Assembly (NCBI GenBank): GCA_046261975.1
Contig: JBHENQ010000107.1
Coordinates: forward strand, 11,006-75,005
Direction of reading: 5' to 3'
DNA length: 64,000 nt
Source: Gemmatimonadaceae bacterium
GTDB lineage: Bacteria > Gemmatimonadota > Gemmatimonadetes > Gemmatimonadales > Gemmatimonadaceae
The notes beneath the pieces were generated by a model. It saw nothing but the letters and a program-made list of their open reading frames with translations, searched no databases and was not told where the DNA came from. Made by a program: the position numbers and the translations under genes. Positions 15 through 4,939 of this stretch are shown piece after piece; position 1 is the stretch's first letter, and each line of letters begins with the position of its first letter.

Positions 15-1928
15 ATGGGCACTTCGCTAATCTGCCGGACCGTGCCCTCATCGCGCCCCAAGGCGCCAAAGGCACCCGAGACACCCACTGGTCCCGTTAT
101 CCAGGAATCAGAGGGACGCGCAGCTCCCAATCGAACGTACCAGGATCTGCTAGGCTCGCCGTCGGACGAAGCGCTATTCGACCATTACTTCAGCAGTCAG
201 TTATCGCTGATCGGGCTTGATGGGAGTACGAGGCCCGTCGGGGCACCAGCGATATTCAACGCCGTGCAGCCTTCCCCCGATGGCCGTTACGTGCTGGTGG
301 AAATCACGCACAGGCCATTCTCTTACCTCGTTCCCATGGGTCGATTCCCATCCCGCGTTGAGGTGTGGGACCTAGATGGCAAGCTCGTCAAGCTGCTTGC
401 GGACCGGCCGCTACACGAGGAAGTCTCCACGTCGTTCGATGCCGTGCCGACAGGAATCCGAGATGTCGAATGGCGCTCCGATGTCCCCGCCACTCTGGTA
501 TGGAAGGAAGCGCTCGACCGCGGAGATCCTAAAGTCCAAGTGTCCAAGCGAGATCGCATTGCCACGCTGTCGGCACCTTTCAACACTCAACCCAAAACTC
601 TACTTGATGCTGAGACGCGACTTGGAAACGTAATCTGGGCAAGGCCTGATCTCGCGCTCGTTAACGAATCATGGTGGAAGACCCGCCGGACTAAGACCTG
701 GGCACTGGATCCCTCGAGTCCCGCCGCCACGCCACGGCTCCTTTTCGACCGCTCCTCCGAAGACCGTTACAACGATCCAGGACGGTTTTTAACAACGGTT
801 GGTTCCCTGGGCACTCCCGTGCTGCTAACCACCAGAGACGGACGCTCGGCATACCTTGCCGGCGGCGGAGCCTCGCTCGAAGGCGACCGTCCATTTCTGG
901 ATCGCGTGGACCTTGCCACCGGCAGGACAGAGCGGCTCTGGCGATCGGAAGCGCCATACTACGAGGAGGTGGTTTCTGTCCTGGACGGGGCCGGCAGGCG
1001 CGCAATAACGAGACGTGAATCCGTCCGAGACGTCCCGAATTATTTCCTGAGGGCAATCGACACCAGGAAAACAGCACAGCTCACCAAGTTCCGGGATCCG
1101 GCTCCACAATTCGCCGGCATCACATCGGAGCTGATTCGGTACAAGCGCTCGGACGGGGTGGACCTTTCGGCGACTCTATACCTGCCAGCAGGCTACAACA
1201 AGTCAAAAGGGCCGCTTCCGTTTCTCTTCTGGGCGTATCCTCGCGAGTTCAAGACCGCGGCAGCCGCCGCCCAGGTTCAGGGTTCGCCTTACCGGTTCAC
1301 GCGTCCGACAGCCGCGTCGCATCTGTTCCTGCTGACGCAAGGCTACGGAATCCTGGACGGTCCGACGATGCCTATCGTCGGCGAGGGGGACGCAGAGCCG
1401 AACGATACTTACGTGAAGCAGCTCGTGTCGAGTGCCCAGGCAGCGGTGGACAAGGTGGTAGAGATGGGAGTCGCGGACCGAGACCGAATCGCGATCGGCG
1501 GACATTCGTACGGCGCATTCATGACGGCGAATCTCCTGGCCCATTCCCGGATCTTTCGCGCCGGAATAGCACGCAGCGGCGCTTACAATCGTACTCTCAC
1601 GCCTTTTGGATTTCAGGCTGAGGAGCGGCCCTTCTGGCAGGCACGGGAGATATACATGGAGATGTCGCCGTTCACCTATGCGGACAGTATCACGGCTCCC
1701 CTTCTCCTGATACACGGCGCAGCGGATGACAACTCGGGGACCTTCCCCCTCCAATCGGAGCGTTTGTATTCGGCGCTCAAGGGGAATGGCACAAAGGTGC
1801 GGCTCGTGTTGCTACCCGCGGAAGCACACGGCTATCGCGCCCGCGAGTCAGTGGGTCACACGCTGTGGGAGATGGTGACCTGGTTGGATACGTACGTCAA
1901 GAACGCGCCGAAGCAGCGAGTGGACTGA
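15..1928 (+). CDS. S9 family serine peptidase (prolyl oligopeptidase / acylaminoacyl-peptidase-like); start may lie upstream of window
   Basis: 637-aa ORF. C-terminal alpha/beta-hydrolase catalytic residues visible: GGHSYGAF (GxSxG), HGAADDN (Asp), AEAHGY (His). Long N-terminal region fits a beta-propeller. Frame is open back to base 3. Confidence 0.75.
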   Translation: MGTSLICRTVPSSRPKAPKAPETPTGPVIQESEGRAAPNRTYQDLLGSPSDEALFDHYFSSQLSLIGLDGSTRPVGAPAIFNAVQPSPDGRYVLVEITHRPFSYLVPMGRFPSRVEVWDLDGKLVKLLADRPLHEEVSTSFDAVPTGIRDVEWRSDVPATLVWKEALDRGDPKVQVSKRDRIATLSAPFNTQPKTLLDAETRLGNVIWARPDLALVNESWWKTRRTKTWALDPSSPAATPRLLFDRSSEDRYNDPGRFLTTVGSLGTPVLLTTRDGRSAYLAGGGASLEGDRPFLDRVDLATGRTERLWRSEAPYYEEVVSVLDGAGRRAITRRESVRDVPNYFLRAIDTRKTAQLTKFRDPAPQFAGITSELIRYKRSDGVDLSATLYLPAGYNKSKGPLPFLFWAYPREFKTAAAAAQVQGSPYRFTRPTAASHLFLLTQGYGILDGPTMPIVGEGDAEPNDTYVKQLVSSAQAAVDKVVEMGVADRDRIAIGGHSYGAFMTANLLAHSRIFRAGIARSGAYNRTLTPFGFQAEERPFWQAREIYMEMSPFTYADSITAPLLLIHGAADDNSGTFPLQSERLYSALKGNGTKVRLVLLPAEAHGYRARESVGHTLWEMVTWLDTYVKNAPKQRVD

Positions 1929-2756: not shown

Positions 2757-3003
2757 CCAGTGATTGCGGTCACTGTCGCTGAGGCCCACCTTGGGGCAGT
2801 GGACTCGAACCACTACTTCCGAATGTGCAGCCAGTAGCGATTGAGTGACGACGGAGGGCGCTACATAACCCGTCTTAGCTCTATGACTGCCGAGGAATCG
2901 AACCTCGCTCCAAGCTCCGACGCCCTGGACATTCACGGGAGTCGAACCCGCCGCGTCGGCCTTCTAAGAGGAAACCTATTCGCAGTCACTACCCAGAGCT
3001 CTC
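2757..3003 (-). other. cluster of tRNA T-arm-like hairpins and tRNA-like fragments; no complete canonical tRNA could be folded
   Basis: Three GGTTCGAnTCC T-loop motifs on the minus strand with 5-bp closing stems: GCGGG-TTCGACT-CCCGT, CGAGG-TTCGATT-CCTCG, AGTGG-TTCGAGT-CCACT. A fourth weaker one lies at about 2660-2680. A 106-nt unit has acceptor-like ends TGACTGC...GCAGTCA enclosing a 7-bp stem CCGACGC/GCGTCGG. None has the 5-prime acceptor strand at canonical distance. Confidence 0.3.
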
Positions 3004-3110
3004 CGGCCTAAACTTGCCATGGACGAGGATGGCGAAGAGTGCATTGCGCTCGGGCCGTAACCAGAGCGGAGCCCGAATGGGGAATCCGAGCGGTTTCTTG
3101 CTTCTACACA

Positions 3111-3183
3111 CTGGGGCGGGTGGACTCGAACCACCAACTTCCGGATTAACAGTCCGGCGGTCTGCCAGTTGACCTACACCCCA
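3111..3183 (-). tRNA. tRNA-Asn (anticodon GTT)
   Basis: Minus-strand sequence TGGGGTGTAGGTCAACTGGCAGACCGCCGGACTGTTAATCCGGAAGTTGGTGGTTCGAGTCCACCCGCCCCAG folds as a cloverleaf. 7-bp acceptor stem with one G-U. Anticodon stem CCGGA/TCCGG with loop CTGTTAA. T-arm GGTGG-TTCGAGT-CCACC. CCA not encoded. Confidence 0.8.
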
Positions 3184-3318
3184 AGAACACGAATCCCGCA
3201 GCCTCCTCAGGGATTCACGCCCCAAAATCTATCACAACATAGCGGAGAATACAGACACGAAGCCGAAACAGTCTTGACACGGGGGTCACACACAACTGCG
3301 ACTCCGGACTCCCGACAG

Positions 3319-4939
3319 TCAGCGCGTGCTCTGGGATGACGTACGCGCGGGCGTCACGCACTTCGGCCACTCGGACGGCTGCGGAAACCCTCCGGGCGCG
3401 GCTTGCGCAGGCGCGCCGGGCGAGAATATGCGCCGATCCCGGGGCACGCGGTCCGGATCCTCCGACGCCAGATAGACCAGCATGGCTACCAATGTCGCGT
3501 TGTTCTTGAGATCATCCCAGACGATCTTGTCGAAGGTGTCACGATTGGTGTGCCACGTATACGTTCCATACTCCCACGAGTTGGAGCCCAGTCCGAACGC
3601 GGGCGCTCCGTGACACACAAACGAGGCGCTATCGCTCCCGCCACCGCTGGGCGCGCCCGGAAAGATCCAGGAGATATGGCGCGAGATTTCGAGTGGGAGA
3701 TGAACAGCCCACCGGGTGAAGTTGGCTCCCGCGCCGGTGAATCCTTGCATCGAGATGTTCGAGACGCGCCCCGTTCCGTTGTCCTGATTGAACAACGCAT
3801 GCAGCCCGCGGACTACTTCGGGGTGATCCGCGGCGAACGACCGGGAGCCATTGAGCCGCTGCTCCTCCCCACTCCAATGCCCCACGAGGATCGTGCGCTT
3901 GGGCCGGGGATATACCGCTTTCAGAACGCGCATTGCTTCCATCATTGTAATGGTGCCGGTGCCGTTATCAGTTGCACCCGACCCCCCATCCCATGAATCG
4001 AAATGCGCGGACAGCATCACGTACTCGTCCGGCTTTTCGATCCCCTTGATTTCGGCAATGGTGTTGAACGCCGGCACCTCGCCCAGAAACTCGCTCTCCG
4101 CGCGAACGCGGACGATGGGTCCCTGGATGTTCTCCGCCAGTCGAAAGAGTAGTCCATAGTCCTCGCAGCTCAGGTCCAGCGCCGGAGCACGTTCGTTTTT
4201 CGTGTCGAAGATTTTGTTGACACCCCATCCGTTCGACCAGCGCGATGCGATTATCCCCGCCGCACCAGCTTGTTCGAGGCGCTTGCCAAGCGTCCCTGTG
4301 CCTAGCTGTAACAACGCCCCGGTAGCCCGCAGGCGAGCTGCCCACTTCTGTTCCGCGGCTGTGCGGTCAGCCCGCATCTTTTGCAAGTGACTCGGTGGTA
4401 GCGAACGCATGCCAGTTTGTGTCGGGCCTGCACGTCGGCTGTGGAAAGGAGACGAGCACAAATTTTCCTCTCGCCTGACCGCGTCCCAGCCAGGACGTGA
4501 AGGCATTGCTGTCCGCCACCTCCGGCAAGATCACTACCGGCGCTGTTACGTCCTTGCCGCCGGTACCAGGACTCCAAGCGAGCATGGTCCCTTCGAGCGT
4601 GCGCACTCGCGGTCTAAGCAAGTCGATATGTGTGATCCCACGTCGCCAGCCGCGCCACGTGCCGTACTGCTCGTTACGCGCGGAGATTCCCCATTTGGCG
4701 TACATCGCCACTGCCCAGTCGTTCGCTGCGTTCTGTCCGGGCGATCCAGTGAGCCGCGGTCCCACGGAGTCAAGGAGCGCCTGCGCGAGAGAGTATGCAT
4801 GCGAACGCTCCATTCCTTCGGCCCAGATTCGCCGGATCACCGTGTCTGCAGTCGGGAAGTTCTGTGCGCGAACGGTCACAGGGGTCCACAGTATTATGAA
4901 GCTGGCTGTGCAGACGAGAGCACGAAAAAGGGAGGGCAT
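3319..4939 (-). pseudogene. M28 family (PA-domain) aminopeptidase, frameshifted: N-terminal piece 4367..4939, C-terminal catalytic piece 3319..4506
   Basis: 190-aa ORF (4367..4939) has a signal peptide, M28 N-terminal region and the start of a PA domain (GKFVLV). The overlapping 395-aa ORF (3319..4506) in another frame continues the PA domain (AGAAGII) and carries the M28 zinc site HFDSWDGGSGATDNGTG. Together about 540 aa, the usual size of an M28 peptidase. Frame change lies in about 4370-4440. Confidence 0.55.

Follow-up and report, generated by a model that had tools for sequence, protein, structure and literature searches.

A probable integration scar beside tRNA-Asn and a conserved, possibly tRNA-mimicking block with two T-arms in a Gemmatimonadaceae genome

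Why should a bacterial tRNA gene be followed by three further tRNA T-arms that belong to no ordinary tRNA? The question is raised by a contig of a Gemmatimonadaceae metagenome-assembled genome (MAG), of which a stretch of 64 kb was analysed (the window; all coordinates are window positions). Its minus strand carries, in this order, a frameshifted M28 peptidase gene, tRNA-Asn, a cluster of hairpins and a gene encoding a DUF4142 protein. The motif GGTTCGANTCC occurs in exact form four times in the window, always on the minus strand and inside 330 bp of the 3184-2790 region (3132-3122, 2948-2938, 2904-2894 and 2811-2801), against an expectation of 0.21 from shuffles, and 0 of 100 shuffles gave four. 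An initial annotation had reported three extra T-arm hairpins with 5-bp stems beside a good tRNA-Asn(GTT), and the coordinates found here agree with it: T-arm 1 lies at 2951-2935 (closing stem GCGGG/CCCGT with one G-T pair), T-arm 2 at 2907-2891 (CGAGG/CCTCG) and T-arm 3 at 2814-2798 (AGTGG/CCACT), all with 5-bp stems on the minus strand. The T-loops of T-arms 1 and 2 match the consensus perfectly. The cluster is two different things, T-arm 3 being a relic of tRNA-Asn whereas T-arms 1 and 2 lie in a conserved block. For the locus as a whole an integration scar with a conserved tRNA-like RNA as its cargo is proposed, a joint reading in which our confidence is evenly balanced.

Informative relatives were obtained only via the DUF4142 protein, and comprise L081 (86% identity in DUF4142; full locus present), L082 (99% amino acid identity; contig beginning within the cluster), L084 and L083 (77% and 73% identity, respectively). 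The intact tRNA-Asn(GTT) gene (3110-3184, minus strand) is called by ARAGORN, scores 67.6 bits as tRNA in Rfam and is 100% identical in L081, as it also is in L084 over the 54 nt held by that contig. Its 3' part is repeated downstream on the same strand, in the window over 24 nt at 83% and in L081 over 36 nt at 94%, beginning at GACTGTT in the anticodon loop. The degenerate copy thus delimited (2790-2830, minus strand) runs from the anticodon loop to the 3' end of the tRNA and contains T-arm 3. The 5' half shows no sign of having been duplicated, as shuffles match the observed score in 47-85% of cases when the 45 nt upstream are locally aligned to it. The segment inserted between the 3' end of tRNA-Asn and the copy (2790-3109, minus strand), recognized from the direct repeats and from L084, which lacks it, has a start-to-start length of 321 bp in the window, compared to 636 bp in L081; the window is short of about 210-230 bp present in both L081 and L082. 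In L084, the 3' part of tRNA-Asn is followed by a terminator-like hairpin and then by about 290 nt up to DUF4142, with no T-arm motif and no tRNA fragment. As far as its sequence tells, L084 is the unoccupied site in a related genome, with loose homology on the right flank. The fragment drifts approximately neutrally, 29 of 35 positions being identical to L082 (third codon positions 90%) and 30 of 33 to L081. In L081, 20-nt repeats of the CTATAGCA type, similar to the arm sites of integrases, lie near both ends of the insert.

A 3' tRNA fragment together with an insert is the standard footprint of a tRNA-targeting tyrosine-integrase element. Given the same-strand 3' repeat, the unduplicated 5' half, the empty site in L084, the drifting fragment and the end repeats in L081, the structure at tRNA-Asn is very probably an integrase-less remnant of site-specific integration, with the tRNA gene as integration target and attL-side junction and the fragment as an attR-type relic. 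No integrase is encoded inside the insert, which by its lists of open reading frames (ORFs) has no ORF common to the copies; no integrase family matched any of the seven neighbouring ORF products scanned, nor did an integrase come to light in the first 8.5 kb of the window. The lack of an integrase within the segment marks it as a remnant and not an intact element. Two other origins of T-arm 3 were rejected. A full-length decayed tRNA-Asn, called in L081 by ARAGORN at an 80% threshold, has a 5' half that behaves like shuffles, and a tandem duplication is made unlikely by the sequence after the fragment, which does not repeat that after the tRNA. The earlier suggestion that the hairpins are remnants of integrative elements therefore holds for T-arm 3, a tRNA-Asn 3' copy that bounds the insert, and fails for T-arms 1 and 2, neither of which is copied from tRNA-Asn; a same-strand 3' repeat with an unrepeated 5' part is seen for T-arm 3 only. 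That tRNA gene fragments left by integrative elements cause trouble in annotation has been documented (PMC9897764).

The part of the insert that is lost from the window has features of its own. It carries an 18-bp inverted repeat with a 4-nt loop (GAGCCCGGAAGCACTTAG / CTAAGAGCCTCCGGGCTC; 277-316 in L082, about 4311-4352 in L081), situated about 30 nt upstream of the tRNA-Asn fragment, and tandem GACGCT(A/G)TTC repeats. Both possibly stem from the att arm of the element or from a terminator. Synteny via the M28 peptidase was dropped as a route of comparison, as none of 80 more distant GTDB Gemmatimonadota genomes has tRNA-Asn or DUF4142 downstream of the orf190-M28 pair, which is itself kept; in the two closest M28 homologs from a protein search (73-74% identity) an FKBP gene occupies the downstream position.

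What, then, are T-arms 1 and 2? They belong to a unit of 105 nt (2884-2988, minus strand), delimited by conservation against L081 and L082 and by the cloverleaf model described below. Over 2991-2886, 100 of 106 positions are identical between the window and L081. The flanking genes, in comparison, are 70-74% identical at their third codon positions, and those parts of the insert spacers that can be aligned, which contain many gaps, 69-80% (binomial p = 5e-7 at a background of 0.76). Against L082 the block is identical at 85 of 85 positions, while third codon positions reach 90% and the 59 nt after the block 85% (p ~1e-4). The 37 nt upstream of T-arm 1 (2988-2952), which hold no T-loop, differ by a single change between the window and L081, and gene conversion from real tRNAs can therefore not explain the conservation. 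The block has moreover been retained in the window despite a deletion of about 220 bp beside it. Since the alignment with L081 places a 1-nt indel within the block, and since the ORFs differ between the copies, it is non-coding. It is concluded from this pattern of conservation that the block is apparently functional, be it as RNA or as a DNA site.

As to the structure of the block, its acceptor-like ends TGACTGC (2988-2982) and GCAGTCA (2890-2884), the latter being the 7 nt after T-stem 2, pair perfectly. These ends had already been noted as those of a 106-nt unit at 2886-2991; the ends stand, while size and position are corrected to 105 nt and 2988-2884, a shift of 2-3 nt. In the cloverleaf model, on the minus strand throughout, the acceptor TGACTGC/GCAGTCA (2988-2982 with 2890-2884) would enclose arm 1 (GGTTT/AGGCC, 2976-2972 with 2962-2958), T-arm 1 in the anticodon-arm position (2951-2947 with 2939-2935), arm 3 (CCAGG/CTTGG, in L081 CCAAG/CTTGG; 2928-2924 with 2914-2910) and T-arm 2 (2907-2903 with 2895-2891), which abuts the 3' strand of the acceptor. 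Its energy is -32.7 kcal/mol in the window and -32.3 kcal/mol in L081, where the minimum free energy fold is close to the cloverleaf. To judge from the alignment and the model, the L081 substitutions all fall in loops or junctions of the cloverleaf, apart from a G-U to A-U change in arm 3 and the terminal acceptor pair. An inner helix CCGACGC/GCGTCGG, proposed earlier for this unit, is indeed present in the window (2959-2953, 2923-2917). It is not conserved, the 3' strand in L081 reading GCACCGG with two central mismatches, and the modelled cloverleaf seems to fit the substitutions better than this helix.

A second fold comes from ARAGORN in mitochondrial mode, which draws a D-loop 'tRNA-Lys(ctt)' at 2995-2925 and at the matching stretch of L081. 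This alternative is a 72-nt D-armless module (2925-2996, minus strand) with the anticodon-like loop CUCUUAG; it includes T-arm 1 and is closed by CTGGGTA (2996-2990) with TGTCCAG (2931-2925). Compared to L081, the closing stem has two pairs with both partners exchanged (C-G to T-A, G-T to T-A) and one broken pair, a pattern for which chance is estimated by ourselves at p ~0.03. In the anticodon-like stem beside CUCUUAG there is one C-A mismatch and two of the pairs are G-U, and T-stem 1 is set off from the closing stem by 3 extra nt. The module and arm 3 of the cloverleaf are mutually exclusive. Structure thus lends weak support, and it is conservation that carries the case for function.

Comparisons with known RNA classes were largely negative. 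ARAGORN at default settings, intron and tmRNA modes included, calls neither tRNA nor tmRNA for T-arms 1-3, and on 2757-3110 Rfam yields no family at E<=10 except an overlap with tRNA-Sec. This bears out the initial view that the hairpins are not canonical tRNAs, and no ordinary tRNAs mis-folded by hand came to light. Only 3184-3110 is called as a canonical tRNA, the other T-arms requiring thresholds of 60-80% or mitochondrial mode, and the relaxed settings draw pseudo-tRNAs at the locus, namely Lys(ctt) and, in the window, Gly(tcc). The tRNA-Sec overlap (RF01852) scores 17 bits against a cutoff of 47 bits (E=3) with several non-canonical pairs; that class is marked by 8/5 or 9/4 acceptor/T geometry and a long variable arm. 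A T-arm directly followed by a 7-nt acceptor strand is present for T-arm 2 (CGAGG-TTCGATT-CCTCG, next to it GCAGTCA as the partner of TGACTGC), while the same arrangement is not clean for T-arm 1, with 3 extra nt and stem mismatches. A D-arm with G18 and G19 is absent from both parses of the block, and the loop in the anticodon position of the cloverleaf, UUCGACU, has C at position 37 and lacks the combination of U33 with a purine at 37.

For tmRNA (RF00023, standard or permuted) nothing was detected in the window by ARAGORN at default, no Rfam match was obtained at E<=10 and no tag frame was seen; lowering the ARAGORN threshold to 70% gave implausible 'permuted' tmRNA calls of about 640-720 nt, in L081 and L082 only. 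The initial failure to find a tmRNA is hence upheld, and the idea of a permuted or split tRNA or tmRNA receives no support from ARAGORN or Rfam. YrlA genes share the strand of rsr (Ro60) and lie no more than about 4 kb from it, and their RNAs have T and D stem-loops split by an acceptor-like hairpin (PMC4201824). In these RNAs the T-arm precedes the acceptor-like hairpin, and some are substrates of RNase P and of the CCA-adding enzyme (PMC4201824). The block has no Rfam match to YrlA and no D-like arm, and its motif TGCGAAT(A/G)G is imperfect relative to GNCGAAN0-1G. No TROVE/Ro60 domain was found in seven neighbouring proteins scanned, which include the M28 peptidase, DUF4142, an S9 peptidase, a nucleotidyltransferase and a GH20 protein.

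It is accordingly very improbable that the block is a known tRNA-like class missed by the models, be it a permuted or two-piece tmRNA, a YrlA RNA or an unusual tRNA (intron-containing, split, Sec-like or D-armless). Such an assignment could draw on the D-armless Lys(ctt) cloverleaf that ARAGORN finds in mitochondrial mode in both the window and L081, on the succession of T-arm and acceptor-like hairpin in YrlA (PMC4201824) and on the TGCGAAT near the 5' end, which is loosely like GNCGAAN0-1G. However, neither tmRNA nor YrlA nor another family appears at E<=10, tmRNA mode is negative at default, the tRNA-Sec score of 17 bits stays below the 47-bit cutoff and no TROVE/Ro60 occurs among the seven proteins scanned, and the D-armless parse itself is burdened by the missing GG of a D-like arm, the C-A mismatch, the two G-U pairs and the 3 extra nt at T-stem 1. 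A role at the DNA level is quite unlikely as well, though not to the same degree. The block would then provide core or crossover sites, or accessory sites, for a tyrosine recombinase (inverted repeats of 5, 7 and 5 bp) with the integrase acting in trans, and the insert would be a still-mobilisable non-autonomous element, for which the same low probability holds. The geometry of a T-arm is that of a recombinase core site and so suits this proposal; many tRNA-targeting integrases cross over in T-loops or anticodon loops, as reported by Williams (2002). Att-like repeats flank the insert, 20-mers are repeated near both ends in L081, and no promoter or terminator marks an RNA gene. On the other hand, the repeat at the junction is the tRNA-Asn fragment and not T-arm 1 or 2, and this fragment drifts although it should be essential. 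The conserved stretch runs unbroken for about 105 nt and takes in non-palindromic parts, a DNA site has no need of a strand-specific T-loop consensus or of an acceptor abutting T-stem 2, and the first 8.5 kb of the window yielded no integrase.

Alternatively, all three hairpins could be functionless relics, either decayed tRNAs or rearranged pieces of a phage or host array, with the conservation due to chance or to recent ancestry. This too is unlikely, if less strongly so than a DNA site. T-arm 3 is such a decaying relic, relaxed ARAGORN draws pseudo-tRNAs here (Lys(ctt), and Gly(tcc) in the window), phage tRNA arrays are rich in partial T-arm elements, for instance after tRNA-Asp in Mycobacterium phage Myrna, and the fold is not thermodynamically special. 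What relics do not account for is an identity of 94-100% in the block against 70-90% at synonymous sites and in both flanks of the insert (p ~5e-7 and ~1e-4), nor the likewise conserved T-loop-free part at 2988-2952, which excludes gene conversion from tRNA T-arms. The constraint on the block likewise disfavours decayed tRNA genes, one of the candidates put forward initially, as the source of T-arms 1 and 2.

Of the candidates first listed, a tRNA-like structured RNA suits T-arms 1 and 2 best, their block being under clear constraint, and we lean, if only slightly, towards a small tRNA-mimicking RNA that was carried by the former element. An element with a copy of the tRNA-Asn 3' part would have recombined within or near the anticodon loop, so that the intact tRNA (3184-3110) would be the left junction and the displaced 3' part (2830-2790) the right one, now decaying. 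Deletions in its interior would have spared 321 bp here and 636 bp in L081, leaving an integrase-less remnant of the cis-mobilizable element (CIME) type. The block (2988-2884) may be cargo still under selection, that is a gene for a small tRNA-like RNA in which T-arm 2 and the 7-bp acceptor would form a 12-bp acceptor/T minihelix, as recognised by tRNA-processing enzymes, while T-arm 1 in the anticodon-arm position would leave the RNA unable to decode. A terminator scan found no terminator-like site between tRNA-Asn and the unit. The RNA would presumably be transcribed from the same strand as the tRNA, perhaps through read-through from tRNA-Asn, and trimmed by RNase P and 3' processing enzymes to yield a stable tRNA mimic that might bind or titrate a tRNA-recognising factor.

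Several observations weigh against this combined explanation. The unit is known in three copies only, from one narrow Gemmatimonadaceae lineage, and the support from covariation is negligible, RNAalifold having found no pair changed on both sides. The data suit either of the two mutually exclusive closing stems to much the same degree. In stability the fold does not exceed shuffles (z -0.25 to +0.84), and the cloverleaf lies 6-7 kcal/mol above the minimum free energy. Promoter and terminator scans of the unit gave nothing usable and it has no conserved promoter of its own, the sole candidate (TTGGCA-17-TATTAC in L081, read from the alignment and unflagged by the scans) being lost in the window through a 7-nt gap. 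No homolog of the block was detected by capped, exact-pattern scans of JGI metagenomes and IMG/VR, and none among cultured phages or in the protein database. Regarding the scar, an integrase was not found at the locus and integration is deduced from the footprint alone, and on the right-hand side of the fragment the match to the flank of the empty site in L084 is loose.

Are there comparable units elsewhere? A scan of JGI metagenomes with a two-T-arm pattern returned 39 loci, none of them related to the unit, and four unit-specific patterns found in IMG/VR either nothing or phage Myrna only. A further IMG/VR pattern, built on the anticodon-like loop, was set aside because its matches were ordinary phage tRNAs followed by a T-arm and not relatives of the block. 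The spurious antisense ORF gave no candidate when used as query against a database of 5.8 billion proteins, and word searches of the literature for RNAs with two T-arms returned nothing relevant. The apparent homolog in Mycobacterium phage Myrna (blastn, 61 nt at 80%, E=2e-5) was rejected, as its 19.6 bits with nhmmer do not set it apart from the best of 160 unrelated double-T-loop sites (18.0 bits), and is treated as a chance similarity between sites of the same kind.

The generic pattern of two T-loops, in contrast to the unit-specific ones, matched more than 120 viral contigs. Among the 160 distinct viral and metagenome double-T-loop sites (from loci L085-L259, a heterogeneous set and perhaps not one family), 50 show 7/7 closure around the two T-arms, the 7 nt behind T-stem 2 pairing with a strand upstream of T-arm 1, versus 14 in shuffled controls. 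Of the other 49 closed sites only 10 receive an ARAGORN tRNA call, and no double-T-arm site scanned reaches the Rfam gathering score, with a few weak tRNA matches in a more permissive scan. Units with one acceptor and two T-arms thus appear to recur in mobile-element DNA. As this layout is enriched (50 versus 14 of 160) and no Rfam family covers it, the block may represent a widespread and undescribed kind of mobile-element tRNA mimic in which one acceptor encloses two T-arms; this extension is tentative and in our judgement rather unlikely. Such mimics would be carried beside tRNA genes by phages and integrative elements, processed by the host and engaged with a tRNA-binding factor, a scenario as doubtful as the extension itself, and no firmer is the example that they could act as decoys for a tRNA-targeting defence or modification enzyme.

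Several kinds of arrangement were noted among these mobile-element loci. Closed double-T-arm units of 80-125 nt are exemplified by L098, L146 and L170 (AGTCAGG...CCTGACT) and by L101, L093, L218 and L222, while another common type consists of a complete tRNA or tmRNA with a lone T-arm within a few nt (L094, L114, L116, L117, L133, L138, L201). A recurrent RNA-like layout of phages has a T-arm, a small hairpin CTCGCTGACCGAG, G-TTGGTAAG, a second T-arm and a tail ..TAGGTAG..CAAAGGCCCGCGTGGTCCCGGCGATACGGG; the hairpin shows covarying variants such as CACGCTGGCCGTG, and the layout is often placed within tRNA arrays. It is found in IMG/VR at L097, L105, L107, L187, L194, L203, L174, L102, L126, L139, L164, L173, L177, L200 and L086. 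None of its 13 scanned members reaches the Rfam gathering score, and five give nothing at E<=0.5. The order of T-arm, acceptor-like hairpin and GGTA-loop recalls YrlA-type Y RNAs, a likeness of layout alone. In phage Myrna (NC_011273.1, 94338-94372; L260, 626-660), an unannotated lone T-arm, CGTCGGAGTGTAGCGAGGTTCGATTCCTCGG, lies between tRNA-Asp and tRNA-Met and begins right after the discriminator base of tRNA-Asp. In the phage-like tRNA array of L230, a stretch of 80 nt (107-186, minus strand) spans positions 1-374 of the Rfam tmRNA model with 49.3 bits (gathering 47), and would be the tRNA domain of a tmRNA-like RNA without the mRNA part.

The genes on either side of the cluster have peculiarities of their own. 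Upstream of DUF4142, a fourth and weaker T-arm had been suspected at about 2660-2680. The structure there is a hairpin in the DUF4142 leader (GCCGG...CCGGC, 2677-2654, minus strand), and since it is present in L084 and L083, where the cluster is absent, it is unrelated to the tRNA-like elements. Its interior is compensated, two T-T mismatches in the lineage of the window corresponding to C-G and G-C in L084 and L083. The leader further contains an invariant 19-nt box GGAGTACG(G/C)TTCTTGCAAA (2708-2690, minus strand) with a -12-like TTGCA, to which the hairpin succeeds, with counterparts at about 4549-4605 in L081 and about 268-320 in L084, and is probably, as its sequence features suggest, a promoter with a regulatory structure in the 5' untranslated region. 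On the other side, the M28/M20-type peptidase gene (3319-4939, minus strand) is frameshifted near 4380-4392, where the ORFs 4939-4367 and 4506-3319 overlap. Its relatives are single proteins of 535-541 amino acids, and in a tblastn comparison with P0012 residues 38-195 and 191-541 are matched in different frames. The split gene is either a pseudogene or an error of the MAG assembly.

The two parts of the cluster differ in what they may teach. The tRNA-Asn fragment is routine, and its value is that of a caution to annotators and a marker of past integration. The block is a candidate non-coding RNA in the poorly studied Gemmatimonadota, kept while its surroundings were deleted or drifted. If expressed, it would join the few bacterial tRNA mimics on record (tmRNA, YrlA) and offer a handle on the many unannotated two-T-arm units of phage tRNA arrays; if not, it would show how conservation alone misleads when three closely related copies are compared.

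Set beside described systems, the block would act most like a tRNA mimic, and to judge from its sequence it fits no described family. The locus as a whole is like att-type tRNA fragments and CIMEs in that T-arm 3 is a same-strand 3' copy starting from the anticodon loop and brackets DNA absent in a relative, but differs from such elements in that the insert is only 321-636 bp long, holds neither integrase nor other gene and has two T-arms inside that do not derive from tRNA-Asn. With the double-T-arm units of phage arrays (IMG/VR, JGI, Myrna) the block shares two consensus T-loops 35-55 nt apart in 80-125 nt, and these units, none of which reached the Rfam gathering score when scanned, often have a 7-bp closure abutting the second T-stem as well; there is no sequence relation to the block beyond the T-arms, the best scores of 18-19.6 bits being at the level of unrelated sites. 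The tRNA-like domain of tmRNA likewise has its acceptor stacked on the T-arm and its anticodon arm replaced, whereas the block is without the G-U alanine identity pair, the pseudoknots and the tag reading frame. From YrlA it is distinguished by a second T-arm at the place of the D-arm, by a 5' motif that is only approximate and by the lack of TROVE among the seven proteins scanned, while the two have in common a non-coding unit of about 100 nt with a consensus T-arm and tRNA-like stems that would not decode.

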